A stretch of DNA of 64,000 nucleotides from a virus, in IMG/VR virus record IMGVR_UViG_3300020469_004451, positions 39,474 through 103,473 of that record; one strand, given 5' to 3'. Below, in pieces: positions 3,933 to 63,424 of this stretch. The first letter of the stretch is position 1. Every line of letters starts with the position of its first letter. Position numbers and translations under genes: made by a program. The notes below the pieces were generated by a model. It was not told the DNA's origin, did no database searches, and was given only the letters and a program-made list of their open reading frames with translations.

Positions 3933-6425
3933 ATGGCTACAGAACATTCTAGAAAAAATTTAGGCTCTTTATTTGGGGGAGAAATTATGTCTATCAACTA
4001 TAATTTCCAATCTGGTTCAGAAGCATCAACTTGCACTCTAACAATTATTAGTGAGAATAATGAATATAATGTGCCAAAGATGAATGAAAAAGTTCACATA
4101 CCTCCGTTTGGTCTTGAGATGATAGTCTTAGAGACTTCTCTAAGACAAGATAGTAAATTTACTACTTTACAAGTAGAGTTGATTGATTCGATGTCAGAGA
4201 TTTTAGACAGAGAAATGGTCTTTATATGGGGAACTCATACTGACATGAGAGGAAATTTATCTTCTAATGGATATTTAATTGATAAAACACTTTTTCTCTC
4301 TCCATTAGATTATCCAAAAAACACTAGGTTTTCACGTAATCTAGCTCGTCCTACAACATCTAGAAATTTTAACAAAAATTTTGGTAATGGAGTGAATGTT
4401 ATTGGATTTGGAAGGATTACCCTGAGAGAAGAAGCTTCTCGCACAATAACCATTGACCCCTCCGCAGAGCAATTAATTGATGGTAATACTTTTGTAGAAG
4501 AAAAAAGGGTGGTTATTGATGCATTCGAGTTAAATAGAACATTAACTACCGACAAAACAATGTTATTAGCAAATCACCTTCCTTTAATCTCGCTTGGTTA
4601 TGATCCAGAACAAGCTGAGTTAAAGTTTGGTTATACTGCATCAGACTTATTCAAACTATTTCTTTCAAAAGGTATTTCATTTGAATCTAATGATGAGCGT
4701 TTTTTATCAGATGAAAATATAATGTTTTCCGATTCTGGAAGTTTTAGAAAAGTTTTATCAAGTGTATTATCAAAAATAGGTAGGTCTTTTTATGTAGATC
4801 CATTTACTCAGAAAATACATATTGTTACAAATGGTGAAATAGCATCTATTAATACAAATTTAAACAATATGTATTTGAATTTTGAAAATACAGAATCCGC
4901 AGAGCAACTTACATTAACTAAAAGTATAAAAAATGTAGAAGCAACTCATCATTTTATAAAAGGACAGGCTACTAAATTTGTAGGAGAGAATTCTTCTTCC
5001 ACGTCTGTTGCACCGAAAGCAAAAAAACATGTCTTATACAAGTTAAGTGGAGAGGAACTCTTTAAAGAGTTGGATCTAAAAGAGGCAGACATAAAATTTG
5101 CCAAAATAGTCGCACCTTTCTACAATAGAACACAAGATACAGAAGCTACAGATAAACTTGTTTTTGCTTTAGGGGAAACTAGGCCGTTTGAGCTTAATGG
5201 CACTTATTATGGACCAGATGAATATCGTTATTCGGACGTGAATCTGTTAGATAAAAACAGAGGGAACTGGTTTAGCGTTATAAATTCTGATGATAGATAT
5301 AATTTCTTTGACTTCGATCCTAGTATCTCTACAGATGCTATACGATTATTAATAAATGGAAAAAATGCCATTTCTGTAAGCGAAGCCAATTATCTTGCTT
5401 TTATCGACAGTTATATGACTCTGTTGGGAGGCGTTTATATTAGCAGCCCTATTTCAAAGAGAAGATTAGATCGTAGGCAATATCTTGACACAGAGTTAAA
5501 ATCAGGAGAATATGTTATAGCTATAGCAGATGCAAACGAATTCATAGATAACGTTCCCGAACTTAGTTTCTTGCAGAAATTACGAATAAAAGCAGCGAAT
5601 AAAACGGGAGGTAAGATTAAAAATATTAGAGTAAAGGATTTAGCTGCAAGACTAAAAATATTACAAGGGGATGATGAAGAAGAGGATAATACATCTGATG
5701 ATGAGGATGATGAAGGTAATCCTCTTGGGTCTAGATTCCATGTAATTGCAGTTAGAGATATGAAATATTTTAATGACAACGGGATATCTGAAGATGAAGG
5801 TGAAGGGTTTTCTGAAAGAATTCACAAAAACTTTTACTTATTTACAAGCACACAGGGTCGTTTTCTTGTAAAGCAAGATAATAAAAGCACTAGTAAAGCT
5901 GAAGATATAGCAAAAAGATGCGAGCAAGCATTTGATGATACTGGAGTATTAGATGGAGTAAAGGAAAAATTAATTGTAAAGTATATGGTGGTTGGAAATG
6001 ATAAAAGCTCTGGTGACCAGCAAGATACTAGCTCACCAGAAATTAATTTTCTTAGAACTGATTTGTCTAATGTAAAACAATTTGCGTCACGGCAATTCAG
6101 CGTATTTTCTTCTGAATACGAAGAAGCGAACCATTTTATTAAAAATATAAATACGATTAATCCAGAATTTGAAGGACCATTTATTACAACTGATATAAAA
6201 TATTTTAGACCTCCAGAAAGAGCCGATTTTGATATGGATAAAGGTGTTAGCTCTATTTCTGTTTCAATGGGCGCTCAAGGTATTTCTACATCTATTAGAT
6301 ATTCTTCAATTAAGTTCGCTCAAATAGATACATCTTTATCTAGAGAATTTTTAGGTTCATCAACAACTGATCAAGTTAAGAGATTTTCTCAAAATGCTTT
6401 TGTTAAAAATAGAATTGGAAGTTAA
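3933..6425 (+). CDS. Large putative tail/baseplate-hub-like protein
   Basis: ~830-aa ORF; ATG at 3933 directly after the upstream stop is preferred over TTG 3888; function from context only. Confidence 0.45.
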   Translation: MATEHSRKNLGSLFGGEIMSINYNFQSGSEASTCTLTIISENNEYNVPKMNEKVHIPPFGLEMIVLETSLRQDSKFTTLQVELIDSMSEILDREMVFIWGTHTDMRGNLSSNGYLIDKTLFLSPLDYPKNTRFSRNLARPTTSRNFNKNFGNGVNVIGFGRITLREEASRTITIDPSAEQLIDGNTFVEEKRVVIDAFELNRTLTTDKTMLLANHLPLISLGYDPEQAELKFGYTASDLFKLFLSKGISFESNDERFLSDENIMFSDSGSFRKVLSSVLSKIGRSFYVDPFTQKIHIVTNGEIASINTNLNNMYLNFENTESAEQLTLTKSIKNVEATHHFIKGQATKFVGENSSSTSVAPKAKKHVLYKLSGEELFKELDLKEADIKFAKIVAPFYNRTQDTEATDKLVFALGETRPFELNGTYYGPDEYRYSDVNLLDKNRGNWFSVINSDDRYNFFDFDPSISTDAIRLLINGKNAISVSEANYLAFIDSYMTLLGGVYISSPISKRRLDRRQYLDTELKSGEYVIAIADANEFIDNVPELSFLQKLRIKAANKTGGKIKNIRVKDLAARLKILQGDDEEEDNTSDDEDDEGNPLGSRFHVIAVRDMKYFNDNGISEDEGEGFSERIHKNFYLFTSTQGRFLVKQDNKSTSKAEDIAKRCEQAFDDTGVLDGVKEKLIVKYMVVGNDKSSGDQQDTSSPEINFLRTDLSNVKQFASRQFSVFSSEYEEANHFIKNINTINPEFEGPFITTDIKYFRPPERADFDMDKGVSSISVSMGAQGISTSIRYSSIKFAQIDTSLSREFLGSSTTDQVKRFSQNAFVKNRIGS

Positions 6426-7183
6426 TCCAACAAACCTAAAATAATTCTAGCTTCTTTTGCTGGTATATCTGAAAAAGAATCCCAAAGTGCAGCATCTTCA
6501 TTTCTGTAAAGTTCCTTTTTCCAAAGCTTTCGCAAAGTTTCTTTGAAGTCTTTTAAGTCTTCAAATTTACTAGACAGAGTTTCTTGTGGGCTGAATGAAG
6601 CGGAAGATACCGTTTTAGTTTCCAATACATCAGATTGGTCTTCTTCTTTCTTTGGAGTAGACTTATCAATTTCATCTGCACCAACAATATGAACGTTCAA
6701 GAAGTTTCTTACACAACGGACGAAAGCTCTATTAGCTGCAATTGATTCTAAAAATTTAACAGAGAAGCCATCGCAGTTATTTGAAGTGGCATTTGCTACT
6801 TCTGTAAAGTCAATAGATTTGTGATTTGTTTCATAATTAGGAGTAAATTTAACTTCACATTTAACAACCGCTCTATCGTAAGATGCTTCTATAACTGTAA
6901 AATTTACGCTCTTATAACCTCTAAGTTTCAGAAGCTCCTTGATACCAGATAGCTTGATCAAAAGTTGATGATCTTTTAAACCCTTGACTGAATCTGGAAC
7001 TTCTTTGTCGAACTTCTCAAACCAACCTTTGTTGGGGTAAAGGTGTTCATCATTGATCATGGCTCGCCAATCGACAAAACCATCTTCATTGAACATATAT
7101 TGAATATTTTCTAGCAGACCATTTTCATCTCTTGAAACTTTTTTTGGTCCGATTGAGTTGTCTATTTTTTTTGCTTTACTCAT
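6422..7183 (-). CDS. Hypothetical protein, possible Rad52/Sak-like single-strand annealing protein
   Basis: Beta-beta-beta-alpha pattern ending ESIAANRAFVRCVRNFLNV; own promoter upstream. Confidence 0.4.
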   Translation of the reverse strand: MSKAKKIDNSIGPKKVSRDENGLLENIQYMFNEDGFVDWRAMINDEHLYPNKGWFEKFDKEVPDSVKGLKDHQLLIKLSGIKELLKLRGYKSVNFTVIEASYDRAVVKCEVKFTPNYETNHKSIDFTEVANATSNNCDGFSVKFLESIAANRAFVRCVRNFLNVHIVGADEIDKSTPKKEEDQSDVLETKTVSSASFSPQETLSSKFEDLKDFKETLRKLWKKELYRNEDAALWDSFSDIPAKEARIILGLLD

Positions 7184-8876: not shown

Positions 8877-9863
8877 TTAGAAAATAGAGTCTTCATCGAA
8901 AGACTGATCAAATTTGTTGTAAGCAGTAGGTCTTTGATCAAAGAAGTCAACATGAACATCACTTAAAAGTTCTTCATTGAACCATTTAGTCTTTATAAGT
9001 TGGTCTTCATTCGTTTCGAAAATCGGGTCTAGGCCAATTCCAGAAAGGCTTGTGTTGAGCCTATCCTTTACAAACTCTTGGACCTGCTCTTTTTTAATAA
9101 AGTCAGTATCCCCCTCTTCTAAAATCCAATCCAAAACCTTGTTCTCTGCATCAAGAGCTTTTCTACAGTAGTTATAAATTAACGATTTGAACTCGTCGTT
9201 AAAATATTCTGGATGCTCTTCTCTGATTTGTCTAATGATATAAGTTCCGAAAGAACCATGCAGAGCTTCTTCTTTAGAAGTTGCCGCAACAATATTATTA
9301 ACAGCTTTAAGCTTCTTGCGGTGCTTATTGAAAGACATTATGATAAAGAACTGAGAAAACAAAGATACATTCTCAATAAACAAAGAAAAGAGAACGATTG
9401 ATTTTACAAAGTTTTTCTCCATTCTAGCCTGAGCAAAATCCTTATATTTTTTAAGATAGTTATGTCTATCTATAATAACTGGAATATCATAAATCTTTTC
9501 GAACTCATTATTGAGTCCCATAACTTCCAGTAGGTGAGAGTAAGCTCTTTCGTGCCTAACCTCTGACTCAGCAAAGGTAGCACCAACCATCTGCACTTCT
9601 GGCTTGGGTAAGTGTGTATGGATATTACCCCAAAAAGTCTTTACACTTACTTCAATTTGAGAGATTAAAAGTAGGCATTTTTTAATAACCTCCTTCTGCT
9701 CTTTTGTTAGTTCGGTATGATACTCTTGAACGTCTTTCTCTAAAGCTTTACTCCACTCCGTATGGACCCAAAAGGAACGGTTAATGGCATCTGTATATTC
9801 TTCACACTCTTTGTATTCAAACGGCTTAAAATGCTCCCTTGGAGCGAAAATGTCTCTACTCAT
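8877..9863 (-). CDS. nrdB: Ribonucleoside-diphosphate reductase class Ia beta subunit
   Basis: Ferritin-like ExxH motifs (EVRHERAY, EALH), ENVSLFSQF, DFFD tail; adjacent to nrdA. Confidence 0.95.
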   Translation of the reverse strand: MSRDIFAPREHFKPFEYKECEEYTDAINRSFWVHTEWSKALEKDVQEYHTELTKEQKEVIKKCLLLISQIEVSVKTFWGNIHTHLPKPEVQMVGATFAESEVRHERAYSHLLEVMGLNNEFEKIYDIPVIIDRHNYLKKYKDFAQARMEKNFVKSIVLFSLFIENVSLFSQFFIIMSFNKHRKKLKAVNNIVAATSKEEALHGSFGTYIIRQIREEHPEYFNDEFKSLIYNYCRKALDAENKVLDWILEEGDTDFIKKEQVQEFVKDRLNTSLSGIGLDPIFETNEDQLIKTKWFNEELLSDVHVDFFDQRPTAYNKFDQSFDEDSIF

Positions 9864-10335
9864 AAGATTTATCTAATTCGGCAATTTTAATATTAAAACA
9901 ATCACTTCTGAAAGTAAAGTTATTACTCTCATCTTTATCGCCTTTCTTGTATTCGGTTGCTTCTGAAAAGAAATTCTTTTTAGATTTCACTCCAAGAAAC
10001 CAGCCTACAGAGTAGTCATTCTTAACACGAACGAAAGCATATACATCACAATCTTGAATTCTTGTGCTTGTAGATATAGAACAATCGTATTCTTCCAATG
10101 GTTTTACAGAGGTGCGTTTTGTCTTAGCATCAACTTTTGTTCCATCATCCAACACAAGATCGTAGTCATAAGTGTTTTCGACTTTTCCACCCATAACCTT
10201 TTGGGCGATAAATTCTCCAATGAAACCAGCAAGATTTCCCTGACCTCTTGTTATGCTTTTATAAAGCTTGCCCATTTCAACCGCCTTTTTTCTGGCGGCA
10301 CAGAGCATATCGTCAGTAATCTCTACTTGAATCAT
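9856..10335 (-). CDS. Hypothetical protein with PD-(D/E)XK nuclease-like motif
   Basis: GE...YDYDL...VDAKTK pattern. Confidence 0.5.
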   Translation of the reverse strand: MIQVEITDDMLCAARKKAVEMGKLYKSITRGQGNLAGFIGEFIAQKVMGGKVENTYDYDLVLDDGTKVDAKTKRTSVKPLEEYDCSISTSTRIQDCDVYAFVRVKNDYSVGWFLGVKSKKNFFSEATEYKKGDKDESNNFTFRSDCFNIKIAELDKSYE

Positions 10336-10397
10336 GTAGTAGAATCTTACACCGATAATCTAAATAAGTCAAGTCAAAAAGAAAGAAAAGAACATTA

Positions 10398-10638
10398 AAA
10401 ACTCTATCCACGCTTTCTTTGGTTTGGTTAGACTAACCTAGCTACCGGACTGTATCTAATTCGGCAACATAGGTTATATGATCACTATAGGATTTATTAA
10501 CTTCGTTACGCATCCTATAAGGTTAATCTATTAACTTTCTTCTTTATTCCAGAGCCTATCCGCTGAGTTTGGTTTCCGATTTAGGCTCTTAGTGCCGCCG
10601 CTCTGTAAGGTTCAGAGATAAGCCTCGCGGCTCATTCC
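10398..10638 (-). ncRNA. Candidate structured non-coding RNA
   Basis: ORF-free gap with at least four consecutive stems, G-U pairs favouring the minus strand, and upstream TTGTTT-N17-TATAAT. Confidence 0.5.
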
Positions 10639-10745
10639 GTTTTTATTATAAAAATCCATCAACCCAAAAACAACCAAAAAGTGAAAAAAGTTAAAATAGT
10701 GATTTTTTAGTTGATTTTTTGAATCTTTGACTTATACTCAGTGGT

Positions 10746-11213
10746 ATGTTCGTAGAAGTTACTAATCAACAGAATATTCTGCCTAAGAATAATGGTGATC
10801 TAGGTTATGATCTTGTAGCTTCGTCTGATCCAGTTTTTGATTACGAAAATCAATTTATAGAATACTCTACGGGAGTCAGGTTAGCACCGTTTGCGGATAC
10901 AATTCACGGGTTGATTTTTCCTCGTTCAAGCATTTCTAATAAATGGTTGACTCTTGCCAACGGAGTTGGGGTTATAGATTCTTCATATAGGGGAGAAGTA
11001 AAGCTAAGGTTTCGCTATCTTTGGCCGATGCATGAGACGATAGAAGGATATTCTAAAGTTAAATTTGATAAGATTTACAAAAAAGGAGATAAGATCGGTC
11101 AATTAGTTTGGTTTCCAGAGCAAATACTTAGCAACTACGTTGAGGTTGACAAATTTAGTGATTGCAAAGAATCACAAAGAGGCGAAGGTGGGTTCGGCTC
11201 TACAGGAGAATAA
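10746..11213 (+). CDS. dut: dUTPase (trimeric)
   Basis: GYDL, PRSS, GVIDSSYRGE and RGEGGFGSTG motifs. Confidence 0.95.
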   Translation: MFVEVTNQQNILPKNNGDLGYDLVASSDPVFDYENQFIEYSTGVRLAPFADTIHGLIFPRSSISNKWLTLANGVGVIDSSYRGEVKLRFRYLWPMHETIEGYSKVKFDKIYKKGDKIGQLVWFPEQILSNYVEVDKFSDCKESQRGEGGFGSTGE

Positions 11214-38455: not shown

Positions 38456-38680
38456 TTACTTAAAACGGAGAGTTTTTCCTCCAACTGAGAGAGAACCAAT
38501 CGACGCTTTCGCAAATTTGCGGTTGACCCTTGCGTTGCGATCAAGGACGGTAATATACTCGTTAGAGCAGCTTACAAGTTGAGCATTGATAGTCTCTCCC
38601 TGCTTTGTGACAAGTCCGAAGAATCGTCCCTTCAGATTTGACAGACTATTATCTAGACGTTTGTTTGATGTAGTATTCAT
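38456..38680 (-). CDS. Hypothetical small beta-barrel protein
   Basis: 74-aa ORF with its own TTGATT-N16-TATAAT promoter (38689-38716). Confidence 0.65.
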   Translation of the reverse strand: MNTTSNKRLDNSLSNLKGRFFGLVTKQGETINAQLVSCSNEYITVLDRNARVNRKFAKASIGSLSVGGKTLRFK

Positions 38681-51066: not shown

Positions 51067-51147
51067 GTGTAAAAATCGCAAGTTTTTTTGGTGTTAGCCC
51101 AAATATAGCGAAGCTTTTTTGGGTTTTGATGTGTAATAAAAGAAGAC

Positions 51148-56205: not shown

Positions 56206-56303
56206 TAAGACCCGCGCTAATCGCATAAAAAAATCCCCGCTTTTTAGATTTGGGCCAAATAAGTATTGACTTATACATTAGACCTGATATAATAGCAACT
56301 GTT

Positions 56304-57907: not shown

Positions 57908-57978
57908 GTATATACGCAAATAACCAATATTAGATTATAGCCATTATTGTTTTATGTGATTAGTATATTATGTGTTGT

Positions 57979-58057
57979 TGTAAGTCGTTGATACTTAGGG
58001 AGTTACGAAGGGCGGGGGGGCGCGCGCTCGCAACTCGTTGAGTTACAAGCAGTTACG
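57979..58057 (+). repeat. 79-bp double-palindrome element, copy 1
   Basis: Arms 57979-58007 and 58029-58057; 21-bp core AAGGGC-G7-CGCGCGCT. Confidence 0.9.
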
Positions 58058-58066
58058 CATCTTCTG

Positions 58067-58231
58067 TCATATTTTATTAGTTAAAGTTTTTTCTTCGATA
58101 CCAAAACCAGTTAGGTCTTCATTCCTGACGCAATCCCTTAGATATTCAAGTATTTTATCAAATGCTTCATCCTCTGTTTCTGCTTGGAACCAATCGTGGA
58201 ATGTAACAACGAAAGTTTTTTCTTCTGTCAT
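58067..58231 (-). CDS. Small hypothetical protein (54 aa, not in ORF track)
   Basis: MTEEKTFVVTFHDWFQAETEDEAFDKILEYL...; co-oriented with neighbours. Confidence 0.6.
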   Translation of the reverse strand: MTEEKTFVVTFHDWFQAETEDEAFDKILEYLRDCVRNEDLTGFGIEEKTLTNKI

Positions 58232-58235
58232 ATTA

Positions 58236-58376
58236 TTATCCGCTGAAGTCTACCAGAGAAACATCTGTAGAAATGAATCCGTCCTCTAGCCTGTGATTCA
58301 TAAGAGCGAAGAACTCAAAAAGATATTGGATCTCCTTCTCTTCTGTCATTTCATATAGCGAGTTGTTGACTATCAT
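58236..58376 (-). CDS. Small hypothetical protein (46 aa, not in ORF track)
   Basis: MIVNNSLYEMTEEKEIQYLFEFF...; fills the gap with 3-4 nt spacing. Confidence 0.45.
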   Translation of the reverse strand: MIVNNSLYEMTEEKEIQYLFEFFALMNHRLEDGFISTDVSLVDFSG

Positions 58377-58379
58377 AAT

Positions 58380-58733
58380 TTAAACCTTTTCAATGATTTC
58401 TTGTATTGTATTGAACGTAACAAGGGCTTTCACCTCGTCAAGTGTCATCTTGACATCTGTTGAATCTCCAGTTTCGATGTCGCACCCTGCGATGAAACCA
58501 TTGCCAGCAAAAGGTTGATGCACTCGATGGACTCCTTTAATCTCAAAAAAGAATTGCTGTTCTTTAAGTAGACCCTCCTCATCCACAAAAAGAGTGTCGT
58601 TTGTTTCGTAGTTTGTCCATCCACATTCGATCCAATCGCACCCCATCAGCACATTAGCCTCTGGATAAACGGTATCGACCTCTTCGACGGTGATTTCTTT
58701 AGTTTTGGCGTTGATTAAGTATCCTTTGATCAT
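58380..58733 (-). CDS. DUF3846-like hypothetical protein
   Basis: GCDWIE...LFVDEEGLL...FAGNG.I.G; own promoter at 58741-58768. Confidence 0.65.
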   Translation of the reverse strand: MIKGYLINAKTKEITVEEVDTVYPEANVLMGCDWIECGWTNYETNDTLFVDEEGLLKEQQFFFEIKGVHRVHQPFAGNGFIAGCDIETGDSTDVKMTLDEVKALVTFNTIQEIIEKV

Positions 58734-58790
58734 GGCTTATATTATAACATACAAAAAAGAAAAGTCAAGGTATTTTTGAATTAAAATTAA

Positions 58791-58864
58791 CATCTCTCAT
58801 AGGAATCGAACCTATAACCTTCGGATTAGAAATCCGATGCTCTATCCAGTTGAGCTAGAGAGAC
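58791..58864 (-). tRNA. tRNA-Arg (anticodon TCT), CCA not encoded
   Basis: Cloverleaf: acceptor GTCTCTC/GAGAGAT, D arm GCTC/GAGC, anticodon stem TCGGA/TCCGA with loop TTTCTAA, T arm ATAGG-TTCGATT-CCTAT. Confidence 0.93.
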
Positions 58865-59154
58865 TTTTCGAATAATTCTTTTCTCTGCTCTGCTTTGGTT
58901 TGAAGTCTCAGAAAATCTTCAGCATATCTCCAAACTGAAACAGTTTCGGGGCATTCTTCAATCGCAGTTAGGAGCCTATCAGCAACAGCTTCTATATTAT
59001 ATCCGTCGCGTAATTTATCGAAGAAGGCTAGATAAATGCAGTAGTTGGAATCGGAGGACGGCATATTAGTTTTCCTCCACCTAATCAGCGAGTAAGTATC
59101 ATTGCGGGAGGACTCGCTCTTGAATTCAATATCTCCTATTCTGTAGTTGTCCAT
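58855..59154 (-). CDS. Hypothetical protein
   Basis: Own promoter TTGACT-N16-TATAAT (59161-59188); 3' end overlaps the tRNA. Confidence 0.65.
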   Translation of the reverse strand: MDNYRIGDIEFKSESSRNDTYSLIRWRKTNMPSSDSNYCIYLAFFDKLRDGYNIEAVADRLLTAIEECPETVSVWRYAEDFLRLQTKAEQRKELFEKSL

Positions 59155-59213
59155 AGCGTTATTATACCATTTTCCAAAACAAAGTCAAGTTTTCTTTTCT
59201 TTTATCATTACGC

Positions 59214-59292
59214 CATAAGTCGTTGATTATTAAGGAGTTACGCCAGCGCGGGGGGCGCGCCGCCGTAACCCGTTGACGCTCAACGAGTTACG
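59214..59292 (+). repeat. 79-bp double-palindrome element, copy 2
   Basis: Arms 59214-59242 and 59264-59292; core CCAGCGC-G6-CGCGCCGC. Confidence 0.9.
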
Positions 59293-59303
59293 AGGCTTAC
59301 TGA

Positions 59304-59549
59304 TCAATCACCACAACTACAATTTTTATTTAAGTTACAGACCAACGTTTGCAGTTTTCTCTCGATGCTTTTCGCGCCGTCCTCTCCCCAAAACCAACTT
59401 AATTCTCTAGCCCAATCGAATTTTTCATTTTCATCTGTTACGTGTGCGCTTGTTAGTAAGATTTCGCAAGTGTTAGGATCGTATCGCGTATCTATCAACG
59501 CAGTGCTTTCATCTGGACAAGGCAAAAGAACTCTCAGTATATATTGCAT
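59304..59549 (-). CDS. Hypothetical protein
   Basis: 81-aa ORF, co-oriented with neighbours. Confidence 0.55.
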   Translation of the reverse strand: MQYILRVLLPCPDESTALIDTRYDPNTCEILLTSAHVTDENEKFDWARELSWFWGEDGAKSIERKLQTLVCNLNKNCSCGD

Positions 59550-59626
59550 TTGTTCTTATGAAAAGCTTTGGTGAATAAAGAATACGATGCAGCCGACGAC
59601 GATAAGGTAAAGTGTATAGAAGTCCA

Positions 59627-60319
59627 TTACCCTATGACAAAACCAGTATTGTCTTTTTTTGCAAGTCCTTTCTCGACTAGCCCAACGACAACGTTGTTGG
59701 GATCAAGGAAGCGTAGGTCATCTTCATCTCCATCCACAACTGCTCTGCCCTTCCAGCTTTTAGGAAGTTGATTGCGAAAGACTGCCGCGACATTGCCTCC
59801 ACTGGCAAAAAGAGAATCGCAAAGGGATTCATTATCTTCCTTACGAGAGAATGTAAGGTGATAGTTTGACGGTAGCTCGCCAGCAAGGTAAGAAGTAAAC
59901 CTCTGCGGGTCTGGAGTATAATCATAAAACTGAACTCCCTTGAACGCATCTAGAACAGTCTCGCCAGCGTTCTTGATTTTGTGGAATGGCAAATCGCTTG
60001 TGAGATTCAAGCGGAAGCACGGTGACATCGCCTTACGTGCCGCACTTTTGATAGAGCTTTCAATTTCCTTCCAAAGCATATCAAGGAAGGTCTGCCGCTC
60101 TTTAAAGAACAAAAGAGTTTTATTGATTCTGGCGGTTTGCACGTTGGACATTGCGCCCCGTCCAGCCGTATTAAGGCAAGCCGCAGCACAGCCAGCACTA
60201 GCATTAGCGCAGACATTATAACCAGAGATTTTTTCGGGCGCAAGGTGCATACCATAGGTGATATAACCTTTTGCCTCGCCTTTCTTCGTTTTGGTATTGC
60301 CAGAGTTAAGTAACTTCAT
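59627..60319 (-). CDS. GP88-like phage protein
   Basis: N.K..K, LAP, CANASAGCAAACL..AGRG, RLN.TSD, FYDYT, NYHLTFS, DGD..DLRFLD; promoter at 60341-60368. Confidence 0.75.
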   Translation of the reverse strand: MKLLNSGNTKTKKGEAKGYITYGMHLAPEKISGYNVCANASAGCAAACLNTAGRGAMSNVQTARINKTLLFFKERQTFLDMLWKEIESSIKSAARKAMSPCFRLNLTSDLPFHKIKNAGETVLDAFKGVQFYDYTPDPQRFTSYLAGELPSNYHLTFSRKEDNESLCDSLFASGGNVAAVFRNQLPKSWKGRAVVDGDEDDLRFLDPNNVVVGLVEKGLAKKDNTGFVIG

Positions 60320-60376
60320 GTATTAGGTGGTTGAGATTGTATTATACAGTAATTTAAATTAAAGTCAAGCCATGAT

Positions 60377-60853
60377 TTAGGAATCGTAATCTCTTCTTTT
60401 ATTTGCTTCGACTACAAGCTTTTCCATGCAATCATTATTATGCTTACAGGTCACAGGATACTTACAGGTAGATTCAACGCACAATTTGTCCGCTAAGATT
60501 TTACCCTTGCCAGAATCAATAGCCAATGAGACAAGCCCCGCGCTTAATACCTTTTCTTCTTTTGTTGTATAAAAGTGGGCAAACTTATATGGGTTATAAG
60601 ATATTCTTGTGGGCGTTTCAATAGATGCCTCCGATACAAAGCCCTCCACAAATGCGTGGACGTTCTTTCGCTTCTCTCTTAGAACCCTAGCCCTGCCAGC
60701 TTGAGACACCTTAAACTTTGCGTCCTTTAAGATTATGTTAGAAGAATATCCCCTAACAATCCAACTACCCTTCTCATTCTTCTGCTGAACAGAAAAAACT
60801 TTTTTATGCAAGTTAAAGTAAACTCTAACAGGCTTTTGATTGTCGATATTCAT
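60377..60853 (-). CDS. Conserved hypothetical phage protein
   Basis: VYFNLHK..FS...VSQAGR.RVLREKRKNVHA...YNPY motif set. Confidence 0.7.
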   Translation of the reverse strand: MNIDNQKPVRVYFNLHKKVFSVQQKNEKGSWIVRGYSSNIILKDAKFKVSQAGRARVLREKRKNVHAFVEGFVSEASIETPTRISYNPYKFAHFYTTKEEKVLSAGLVSLAIDSGKGKILADKLCVESTCKYPVTCKHNNDCMEKLVVEANKRRDYDS

Positions 60854-61104
60854 TAGTAAGATAAAACCTCAAAAGAATTTGTCTCTTCTAAGAAAGCACC
60901 AGACTTATCTGGCATAGGATAACCACCAACGGTAGCATCTGGAAATCTACCGAAACAATATGTTCTGTAAACGCCCGTAATGCCTTTCATCTTACCCTTA
61001 TCATCTTGGTCAAAAATTTCTGTTACCCTGACAATATAATAGGATTCCTTGGAACCCGTAGGAGTAACCTTCACAATAGAACCAGTTCTGAGATGCTCGA
61101 TCAT
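60853..61104 (-). CDS. Hypothetical protein
   Basis: ATG 61104 preferred, downstream of TTGCGC-N16-TATAAT (61111-61138). Confidence 0.6.
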   Translation of the reverse strand: MIEHLRTGSIVKVTPTGSKESYYIVRVTEIFDQDDKGKMKGITGVYRTYCFGRFPDATVGGYPMPDKSGAFLEETNSFEVLSY

Positions 61105-61208
61105 GTCCAGATTATACCATAAAATAGAAATAGCGCAATATATTTTTATTAGTAATATATCACGCAATCGCGCCATGCCAGTTGGCATCTATTTTTTTCT
61201 TGACAAGT

Positions 61209-61287
61209 CATAACTCGTTGATTATCAAGCAGTTACGACGGCGGGGGGGGCGCGCGCTCGTAACTCGTTGAACCTCAACGACTTACG
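61209..61287 (+). repeat. 79-bp double-palindrome element, copy 3
   Basis: Arms 61209-61237 and 61259-61287; core ACGGC-G8-CGCGCGCT. Confidence 0.9.
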
Positions 61288-61312
61288 AACACTAGCGTTT
61301 AGACAATAAAAC

Positions 61313-61336
61313 AGGGCGCGAGTTGCCCCGCGCCCT
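61313..61336 (-). terminator. GC-rich hairpin/terminator (duplicated at 63188-63211)
   Basis: AGGGCGCGAG..CCCCGCGCCCT downstream of the DUF932 gene. Confidence 0.6.
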
Positions 61337-61362
61337 ATCATATGCCCATTTGTGTGTGAGTG

Positions 61363-62346
61363 TTAGTCGATCACTGCGACCTCTTCTGTCTGCGCGACCT
61401 CTTCGGCCTCTGTTTCTGCGAAGCTCTCTTCGAAGTTTGCTTGGCCCTCTTCGCTGGAAGGATCACCCTCTTGAGCGATTTCCTCACCAACAACGCGAAC
61501 GTGTCCAGCGACCGCATCCATGAGAGACTGCATATTCATTGTGCGCGTCGGCAACTTGGAAAGATCGGAGCCTTTGAGGATTTCGGTGACGGCATTGTAA
61601 AGCCCCCACAGGTTTTCACCCTGACCAAACTCCAAAGCGAGTTCCGCTTCTTTCGCACCTACAGCAACGTCGAACGCCTCTTGATCGAGATCATCCACGA
61701 AACCTTGCTCGCCTTGAGTGGTCACGATGAAGTCATCTTCCTCGATCATATTCTTGGCGGCAAGCTCTGGTTTTTCCCAAAGCTGGATAACGTCGTAAAG
61801 CTTTTGCTTCATCAACGCACCACCGTCTACAAGTCTTACAGCCAGTTCAGCAGCTTCGGCGCGCGTCAATTCGCAATCCTTGTAGGATTCGATGCGCTTT
61901 GACATATCAAGCCATTCAGTCACAAGCGAGGCGATCACCTTAGTGATTACGCTAGGCAAGTCGCGCAAGATTTGCGTGGTGTGGCGGCGACCGATTACTT
62001 TCTCGGAAGAGAAGCAAAGGTTGTCGCACACCATCATGCGGTTGCCAATGCAAATGCCAGCAGCGAAAGCCTTGTCGTGAGAGTTGCGAAGACCGCAAAC
62101 AATCTGGCGATCTTCGCCAGCAAGGTCTTCGCGAGTGAGAGCAAACCCGCCAAAGTAGCGCAAGCCGCCACGGTCGAGTTTGTGAGCTTCTTCGACAATC
62201 TCAAAACCAGCAGCCTCAAGAGCTTTTTTGGTTTCGTCGATTAGCGTAGTGTGGGGAATCGGAGTGTGGCGACCAGTGGAGTCAGGAGTGACAACAGCGG
62301 CGACTTCTTCAATTGAGCAGGTTCTGTTTCCGTAGATTAGTGACAT
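61363..62346 (-). CDS. DUF932-family protein
   Basis: H.PIPH..L, GLRNSHD, G....VCDNL.F, RRHT, LWGLYNAVTE; promoter at 62383-62411. Confidence 0.75.
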   Translation of the reverse strand: MSLIYGNRTCSIEEVAAVVTPDSTGRHTPIPHTTLIDETKKALEAAGFEIVEEAHKLDRGGLRYFGGFALTREDLAGEDRQIVCGLRNSHDKAFAAGICIGNRMMVCDNLCFSSEKVIGRRHTTQILRDLPSVITKVIASLVTEWLDMSKRIESYKDCELTRAEAAELAVRLVDGGALMKQKLYDVIQLWEKPELAAKNMIEEDDFIVTTQGEQGFVDDLDQEAFDVAVGAKEAELALEFGQGENLWGLYNAVTEILKGSDLSKLPTRTMNMQSLMDAVAGHVRVVGEEIAQEGDPSSEEGQANFEESFAETEAEEVAQTEEVAVID

Positions 62347-62403
62347 GATATTTTAATTAGGTTTTAGGTTAACAACAAGGAGAGTATAAACTATTTTCTT
62401 TTA

Positions 62404-62607
62404 TTAGTCAAGAGAATATCCGAAATTATTTTCAATTTCTTCATCCTCACATTCGGTTCCGATGGAGCAAATCCCGCGAGTCAGCGAAATCTCATCGTAA
62501 ACATCTTGAAGGCGTTCGCGCAATAACGGGTTACCATCAAGCGCGGATTGTGTTAGGTCATCAAGGCCAAAGTCGGCTATCAGTTGGGCATCTGTTTTAT
62601 CAGGCAT
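62404..62607 (-). CDS. Hypothetical acidic protein
   Basis: 67-aa ORF with a promoter-like sequence at 62614-62642. Confidence 0.55.
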   Translation of the reverse strand: MPDKTDAQLIADFGLDDLTQSALDGNPLLRERLQDVYDEISLTRGICSIGTECEDEEIENNFGYSLD

Positions 62608-62712
62608 AGAAATAATTTAGCGTATTAAGTGGTTTACCTCAAGACTTTTTTTATTAGCTTAGATCACGTAATCGCGTAACATGGGTTGGCATGGTTACTG
62701 AAACGCAATCTG

Positions 62713-62791
62713 CGTAAGTCGTTGAGTATCAGTGACTTACGACGGCGGGGGGGGCGCGCCGTCATAACTCGCTGGCGCTCAACGGGTTAGA
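62713..62791 (+). repeat. 79-bp double-palindrome element, copy 4
   Basis: Arms 62713-62741 and 62763-62791; core ACGGC-G8-CGCGCCGT; overlaps the stop codon of 62787-63011. Confidence 0.9.
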
Positions 62792-63011
62792 CATCATACC
62801 CCATTGATCGCCCGTAAGCTAAGAGCCGGTCATGTTCGCGCTCGTATTCGCGAAACTCTACCGTCCCTAACGGGTAGGGGTTGAACTCCTCGGTTTCGGG
62901 ATTCCAATCGCACCCGCACTCAGCGTTCGCGGACTGATGCGCCCTCTGCTTGGGCGACAGGCTTGGGTTGGTATGAGGGTTTTCGGTGGTAGCGTAATCG
63001 TTGTTGTTCAT
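62787..63011 (-). CDS. Hypothetical protein
   Basis: Single gene between repeat copies 4 and 5; promoter TTGATT-N16-TAAATT (63018-63045). Confidence 0.6.
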   Translation of the reverse strand: MNNNDYATTENPHTNPSLSPKQRAHQSANAECGCDWNPETEEFNPYPLGTVEFREYEREHDRLLAYGRSMGYDV

Positions 63012-63084
63012 AGATGTAATTTACCACATTATCAGAATAAATCAAATTCTTTTTGTGTGTTTTATATAGCGCGATTGCGTATTA

Positions 63085-63163
63085 TATAACTCCTTAACAA
63101 TCAAGCAGTTACAACGGCGCGCCCCCCGCGCAGCCGTAACTCGTTGACGCTCAACCAGTTACA
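63085..63163. repeat. 79-bp double-palindrome element, copy 5 (core inverted)
   Basis: Arms 63085-63113 and 63135-63163; core ACGGCGCG-C6-GCGCAGC. Confidence 0.9.
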
Positions 63164-63424
63164 CGCACTAACATATAGGCACGACATAGGGCGCGAGTCT
63201 CCCCGCGCCCTAGCCATGAACAAGAACCGCAAACCGTATGCGATGTTAAGAAAAAATGTTATGTTCTCTCAGATGCCAGCGGGAATTTATGTCCAAAGGG
63301 TATCTCCTTGTCACCCGCCCATAATGGCAAGACCTTTTTTATCTTATGACATCTGGGAAAACACAATATTTATTTTTTTGGTATTAGGGCGGGGGCTGCT
63401 AGTGGCATACCCCCGCCCATTCTT

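Follow-up and report, generated by a model that had tools for sequence, protein, structure and literature searches.

The locus described here raises the question of what the longest non-coding stretch of an otherwise tightly packed phage genome contains, and whether it is an RNA gene. The window, by which we mean the whole 64,000-nucleotide stretch of DNA that was analysed, has its largest intergenic gap at 10336-10745. The first-pass annotation had described a gap of about 400 bp in a packed genome, which is borne out at 410 nt as the largest in the 64-kb window. It had proposed that the gap holds a candidate non-coding RNA of about 240 nt with its own promoter, or else a regulatory leader for the nrd operon.

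The gap separates two diverging gene groups. To its left, on the minus strand, a 159-aa gene is followed by nrdB and nrdA. To its right, on the plus strand, are genes for a dUTPase (10746-11213) and a dNMP kinase and a sigma-factor-like gene. The window also codes for a DnaE-type polymerase, a DnaB-like helicase and several glycosyltransferases. It looks like part of an uncultured marine phage, and with this polymerase and helicase the phage is not T4-like. A blastn search against the INPHARED phages gave no match to the gap and, for its neighbourhood, only distant RNR matches. The AlphaFold model of the 159-aa protein is nearest in Foldseek to NhoI, Eco15I-N and DpnI, which are methyl-directed restriction enzymes, and the protein has no Pfam or PHROG family. 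Judged by this model the gene product is PD-(D/E)xK nuclease-like, and we refer to the minus-strand group as the nuclease-nrdBA operon. The upstream neighbours of the 159-aa homologues are very variable in more than 100 relatives from marine and freshwater viral contigs.

The 159-aa protein served as the query for collecting relatives from IMG/VR and from the metagenome contigs of JGI, which gave about 160 loci. Five distinct sequences are close relatives, with 96-97% protein identity and 91-95% nucleotide identity in the neighbourhood. Together with the window, these six sequences show three states of a slot inside the gap. The slot is empty in the window, L084 and L085, where 410/410 nt align at 95% identity. 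In L081/L083 (IMGVR_UViG_3300022074_000121) it holds a 334-aa ORF with a weak Glyco_trans_1_4 match (E 8.5e-4, below the Pfam cutoff). In L086 and L113 it holds a 215-aa ORF with a clear Methyltransf_24 domain (Pfam E 1e-21), and these two ORFs are 84% identical. The gap in L081/L083 is approximately 1355 nt long, with the additional DNA placed between window positions 10528/10529 and 10467/10468.

The ORFs found in the slot, here called cargo, are joined to their surroundings in a uniform way. All cargo-bearing forms have the cargo ORF on the strand of one promoter in the gap, the cassette promoter. The cargo ATG comes directly after a conserved leader of about 110 nt with three hairpins (H1a, H1b and H2) and a purine-rich tract, and the cargo stop codon is followed at once by the conserved core, 24 nt long, of a further hairpin, H4. 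The junctions are alike in all forms, and apart from the slot the close relatives are colinear for about 4 kb in both directions. The cargo genes of the relatives have no copy elsewhere in the window, and their GC content (33-34%) does not differ from that of the genome (36%). The empty form is not an assembly artefact, since a 1185-nt contig from an independent seawater run (9696-10880) is identical to the window. Slots in relatives with 40-62% protein identity were considered and set aside. The upstream context differs there, and several of the apparent gaps hold a conserved ORF shorter than 70 codons, which our ORF threshold had passed over. A small conserved ORF of about 55-60 codons, with the start region M..V..LRQGIGLDIEYNEDICHI..., lies just upstream of the 159-aa homologue and fills the apparent gap in L004, L005, L008, L009, L012-L014 and L051. 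The features of the gap are collected in Table 1.

Table 1. Features in and beside the 410-nt gap; positions are those of the window, and promoters are predicted.
Feature	Position	Strand	Basis or remark
159-aa gene, predicted PD-(D/E)xK nuclease fold	9856-10335	-	model pLDDT 87.6; Foldseek E 3e-6, TM ~0.5
Own promoter of nuclease-nrdBA operon, TTGACT-17-TAAGAT	10344-10372	-	conserved in 6/6 sequences
H4 core, 6-bp stem with G-U pairs, conserved 14-nt loop AAUUAGAUACAGUC	10442-10467	-	directly after cargo in all forms
Filler of the empty slot, 61 nt	10468-10528	-	common only to the window, L084 and L085
Purine-rich tract GGAAUAAAGAAGAAAG, ribosome-binding region	10529-10550	-	precedes cargo ATG in relatives
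Leader hairpin H2, 8-bp stem AGAGCCUA / UAGGCUCU, 23-nt loop, conserved loop core AAACCAAACU	10551-10589	-	
Leader hairpin H1b, CUCUG / CAGAG, variable 7-nt loop	10601-10617	-	6-sequence comparison
Candidate 7-codon mini-ORF, ATG AGC CGC GAG GCT TAT CTC TGA	10612-10635	-	read from sequence
Leader hairpin H1a, 7 bp, GCGA (GNRA) tetraloop	10618-10635	-	invariant in 6 sequences
Cassette promoter, TTGTTT-17-TATAAT	10645-10673	-	read from sequence; hexamers invariant in 6 sequences
dUTPase promoter, TTGATT-16-TATACT	10711-10738	+	hexamers invariant in 6 sequences

Three promoters are predicted in the gap, and their hexamers are all without variation in the six sequences. Two of them abut start codons. 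The dUTPase promoter ends 7 nt before the ATG at 10746, which is a leaderless layout, and the promoter of the nuclease-nrdBA operon ends 8 nt before the ATG at 10335. Strong sigma-70-like promoters abutting the ATG are found at 11 of the 84 called genes, against 1.6% of random positions, and the same kind of promoter is present at both edges of the equivalent gap in L002, a relative with 62% identity. They are mostly of the form TTGACT-16/17-TAnAAT and end 4-12 nt before the start codon; examples are found at 6422-7183(-), 38456-38680(-), 53947, 56876, 57418, 58380-58733(-) and 58855-59154(-). This suggests that leaderless or near-leaderless mRNAs are widespread in the phage, for which a structured leader of 110 nt is unusual. 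Since both flanking genes have ATG-abutting promoters of their own, the nuclease-nrd operon is not in need of the third.

The third is the cassette promoter. On the minus strand, TTGTTT (10673-10668) and TATAAT (10650-10645) are separated by N17, at the very position given in the first-pass annotation, though the -35 hexamer matches the consensus at only 3/6 positions. A consensus scan missed the promoter because of this weak -35, and we predict it from its likeness to the consensus together with its conservation; the sole variable column in the six sequences lies in the spacer. Upstream of the relatives' cargo ORFs, no other minus-strand promoter is plausible. Transcription is predicted to start near 10638.

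The gap had been said to contain a series of consecutive stems, and all four stem groups were found. The arms of H2 pair 10551-10558 with 10582-10589. H1a can be extended to 10612-10639, and in this long form it reaches -13.0 kcal/mol on the minus strand versus -5.3 kcal/mol on the plus strand. The leader (10540-10640) has a GC content of 50%; the window as a whole has 36%, and the promoter zone next to the leader 24%. For the span first proposed as an RNA, 10398-10673, folding is modestly better than that of shuffled controls, with a z-score of -2.18 on the minus strand (6/200 shuffles as good) and -1.74 on the plus strand (14/200). For the predicted minus-strand transcript, 10639-10434, the z-score is -3.48 and all 200 shuffles are beaten (0/200 as good), whereas the plus strand of 10434-10639 gives -0.98 (33/200). 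Rfam gave no match in 10250-10850 at the gathering score or at E<=10, and the only Rfam match in the window is a tRNA at 58791-58864. ARAGORN found no tRNA or tmRNA in the gap region, in agreement with the earlier view that hallmarks of tRNA, tmRNA, RNase P and group I introns are absent. With the stems present, the shuffle results and no match in Rfam or ARAGORN, the hairpins are confirmed and are more than chance.

Downstream of the slot, the H4 stem of the window can be extended to pair 10434-10447 with 10462-10476 (10434-10476). The inner helix of H4 had been said to pair fully, via G-U, only on the minus strand, and this holds, with -16.9 kcal/mol on the minus strand versus -10.2 kcal/mol on the plus strand. 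Pairing in the H4 core is 100% in spite of three one-sided changes (U-A to U-G, U-G to U-A and C-G to U-G), and these changes keep the pairs only in minus-strand RNA. The core forms an island of conservation amid flanks that differ among the three forms. H4 is not a classical intrinsic terminator, since it lacks a U-tract, and a pattern scan for terminator-like sites found none in the gap. The TTGACT-17-TAAGAT promoter follows about 70 nt after H4.

The slot begins at 10528/10529, at the edge of the purine-rich tract, and in the empty form it is occupied by the filler. A hairpin, H3, lies in the filler, pairing 10486-10493 with 10512-10519 on the minus strand, and a 23-codon ORF (10513-10442, minus strand) starts in the filler and runs into H4. 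The start of this ORF, ATGCGT, is also the start of 2/3 of the cargo genes of the relatives; L086 has ATGCAC. Local alignment of the filler with the cargo genes scored no better than with shuffles, and its likeness to the 5' end of the methyltransferase gene is not significant.

We compared the conserved parts of the gap with its neighbours. In the five relatives, the 199 conserved nucleotides differ from the window by 1-6%, with 2-4% for the promoter zone (10640-10745) and 1-6% for the leader, versus 12-39% for the fourfold sites of the nuclease-like gene and the dUTPase gene, which border the gap. The relatives are mosaic, and the fourfold sites of nrdB in L084 and L085 have diverged by only 3%, so recent recombination could partly explain the low divergence.

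Thirteen columns of the leader vary, nine in loops and four in stems. H2 has one compensatory change, G-C to U-A in L086, and six variable positions in its loop. In H1b a C-G to U-G wobble is found in 3/6 sequences and the loop varies at 3/7 positions with the stems kept, while the loop-closing pair is lost in L085. Across the six sequences, 99.2% of the stem cells of the leader are paired, a value that was reached in 65/500 trials of a shuffle control. The covariation check proposed in the first-pass annotation therefore gave a divided answer: substitutions mostly keep the pairing and one is compensatory, but the covariation of the leader is not significant, because the six sequences are close and the stem changes too few.

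The element is a single-copy one. Searches with blastn-short and with a covariance model (R1) found no copy elsewhere in the 64-kb window and only orthologous copies in L001-L162, and exact 19- and 20-mers of H1a and H4 were found in IMG/VR in only one close relative. Exchange through repeated linker motifs is thus not supported. A gapped pattern of H2 had at least 92 matches in IMG/VR, all of them chance palindromes with no wider similarity to the gap. Weak R1 matches in L140 and L144-146 (E 1e-3 to 0.07) were rejected, since they lie inside a 296-aa ORF, contain many non-standard pairs and consist mostly of the purine-rich tail.

We think it probable, though by no means certain, that the gap provides the promoter, the folded 5' leader and the 3' hairpin of a cassette for swappable accessory genes, of which the window carries an empty version. 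The presence, strand bias and conservation of the cassette parts, and their position relative to the cargo ORFs, were observed directly. The proposal of a candidate RNA of about 240 nt with its own promoter stands as far as the structure is concerned, which is strand-specific and conserved and has invariant promoter hexamers. It does not stand as a dedicated RNA gene, because the 5' hairpins lead interchangeable cargo genes and the last hairpin follows the cargo stop codon. The 240-nt RNA is the scaffold of the cassette minus its ORF.

The gap would then be a divergent control region with three transcription units. In brief, the promoters at the edges would serve the dUTPase gene on the plus strand and the nuclease-nrdBA operon on the minus strand, each abutting its start codon. 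Between them would lie the scaffold, made up of the third promoter, the leader of about 110 nt (H1a, H1b and H2), the purine-rich tract, the slot and H4. H1a starts at the predicted 5' end and, together with H1b and H2, probably protects and insulates the leadered cargo mRNA. H4 probably acts as a 3' barrier, or as a processing or binding site, between the cargo and the promoter that follows. Cargo would probably be exchanged by recombination between relatives that infect the same cell, with the conserved flanks as homology arms. The product of the cassette promoter in the window would be a structured RNA of about 200-260 nt with no ORF, or a read-through leader into the nuclease-nrd operon.

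If this is true, a natural single-copy module of promoter, leader and trailer exists in phages other than the T4-like ones, and the locus is a defined hot spot for the exchange of accessory genes. The hairpins would be the fixed regulatory frame of a slot in which a lineage of uncultured marine phages swaps accessory genes. The kinds of cargo, glycosyltransferase-like and methyltransferase, resemble the many glycan-building genes elsewhere in the genome. The case also indicates that comparison at the population level can resolve an RNA candidate from a single genome. It raises the question of why a phage with an otherwise leaderless layout of its promoter-proximal genes keeps a single long, structured leader.

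A free-standing small RNA is the first alternative to be considered. Here the promoter of the empty form would produce a stable RNA of about 200-260 nt, from H1a to H4, that has taken on a separate function, such as base-pairing with mRNAs of the host or the phage, or titration of a protein. The minus-strand fold (z -3.48) fits such an RNA, and the empty form, H3 included, has been retained at 95% by three sequences and also occurs in several independent DNA runs. Two RNA libraries (X19 and X20) gave contigs at 10377-10620, 10442-10592 and 10681-10831 and nothing else on a 3-kb stretch, so that all of them lie on or beside the gap. However, both libraries come from one oligo-dT study, the depth is about 2, the contigs give neither strand nor ends and one of them is upstream of the predicted start of the cassette. 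DNA carry-over or capture of A-rich tracts therefore explains these contigs equally well, and they do not count as evidence of transcription. The 5' hairpins and H4 are, moreover, equally conserved around a protein gene, so that their conservation needs no function as a small RNA, and neither a terminator in the pattern scan nor an Rfam family was found. We consider a free-standing small RNA unlikely.

A bolder reading, to which we give a similarly small chance, concerns the mini-ORF. The leader could be a new cis-regulatory RNA in which a leaderless mini-ORF, placed in mutually exclusive helices, controls glycan-modifying cargo, or the ORF-less allele could have been exapted as a stable phage small RNA. 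The candidate mini-ORF starts 9 nt after the -10 hexamer of the cassette promoter, inside H1a/H1b, with a spacing that fits the leaderless layout of the phage. Two alternative helices can form there, the long form of H1a versus GCCGC/GCGGC enclosing H1b. Because the stop codon is lost in L085, we treat the mini-ORF as an unexplained detail.

The suggestion of a regulatory leader for the nrd operon is weakened by the promoter that the operon has of its own, though read-through from the cassette promoter may still occur. In that case, transcripts from the cassette would pass H4 and give the nuclease-nrdBA operon a second, regulated mRNA with a long leader. The orientation is the same, the leader is conserved and there is no intrinsic terminator between 10638 and 10335. 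But the operon's own promoter is conserved and abuts its ATG, in relatives a cargo ORF of 650-1000 nt intervenes, and the gap has no riboswitch match. It has no NrdR box either, as a search of 10336-10745 for the 16-bp palindrome acaCwAtATaTwGtgt with at most 3 mismatches found none; the rest of the window has four matches, no more than expected by chance. Such a role for the cassette leader is quite unlikely.

An element that acts as DNA, such as a replication origin, perhaps primed by the transcript from the promoter, is very unlikely. The region is divergent and AT-rich, has phased A-tracts and hairpins, and lies beside genes for nucleotide metabolism and replication. Its promoter zone is highly conserved (2-4% divergence) and AT-rich (24% GC), and near 10 kb the divergent switch in transcription coincides with a local minimum of the cumulative GC skew. 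At the same place the distant L002 has a gap that is also rich in hairpins but unrelated in sequence (z -3.7 and -5.5). However, the GC skew just tracks gene orientation, H1a and H4 need G-U pairs and form good folds on just one strand, and a whole gene can occupy the middle of the region. A match to a replication origin had been named as something that would speak against an RNA, and the search for an iteron array in the gap was negative. There are no DnaA-box-like repeats, and the sole repeat is a 9-nt pair, TGATTTTTT (twice), in the promoter zone of the dUTPase gene. In L002, the equivalent divergent gap (2680-2960) includes a perfect 13-bp stem among very strong hairpins, and the strand that folds better is opposite to that of the window.

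Least probable of all is a non-functional scar, with hairpins and a promoter-like motif left by a deletion, for although only the empty form has the filler, whose ATGCGT looks like the remnant of a cargo start, the leader and H4 core diverge well below the fourfold sites of the neighbours in five relatives and the stem substitutions keep pairing.

Taking the gap as the scaffold of a swappable cassette, the nearest described system is the PeSL (promoter-early stem-loop) cassette of T4-type phages, which consists of a sigma-70-like promoter and stem-loops (Arbiol et al. 2010, PMC2839356; Comeau et al. 2014, PMC4122927). PeSLs are about 100 bp long and occur in many copies in hyperplastic regions. 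They flank non-essential ORFans, by whose insertion, deletion or replacement very close relatives differ, and their stem-loops terminate transcription effectively (PMC2839356; PMC4122927). The element of the window likewise has a sigma-70-like promoter beside stem-loops in intergenic space, it flanks a gene that is gained, lost or replaced between close relatives, and the module that is exchanged carries along or retains expression signals of its own. In contrast to the dispersed PeSLs, it is single-copy in the 64-kb window and L001-L162, and its hairpins lie in a transcribed leader of 110 nt and lack the features of a terminator. We therefore do not place it in the PeSL family, for which dispersed repetition is the defining feature.

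Another relevant concept is the moron, a gene with its own promoter and factor-independent terminator that is absent from close relatives. The concept reportedly goes back to Juhala et al. in 2000 and to Hendrix et al. It has been discussed in connection with PeSLs (PMC2839356). The cassette resembles a moron in that a single accessory gene, with its own predicted promoter and a downstream hairpin, lies between genes that are adjacent in close relatives. It differs in that different genes use one scaffold, which stays when the gene is absent, in that the downstream hairpin, H4, has no U-tract, and in that the GC content of the cargo is like that of the genome.

Stem-loops at the 5' end of some mRNAs of bacteria and phages, as in the 5' UTR of ompA, shield them from RNase E and from decay that depends on the 5' end. 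H1a, which begins about 0-3 nt from the predicted 5' end, is similar to such stabilisers. The leader of the window differs from them in having two further conserved hairpins, and its 5' end is a predicted one.

Two kinds of repeat are present elsewhere in the window. An intergenic repeat of about 95 nt has five copies in 57958-63164, with starts at 57958, 59193, 61188, 62692 and 63064, in the end of the window that has small ORFs and a higher GC content. Each copy contains three inverted repeats, including a G-run/GC-rich hairpin (...GTTACGACGGCGGGGGGGGCGCGC.GTCGTAAC...), and these repeats look more PeSL- or REP-like than the element in the hairpin-rich gap. A 34-nt repeat, AAAnCGCCCACTTTTTnG..GCGCGCCAAATAA, is found at 51072, 56172, 56229 and 57274. 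TTGACT-type promoters follow the copies at 56229 and 57274, directly in the first case (56266) and after about 100 nt in the second.
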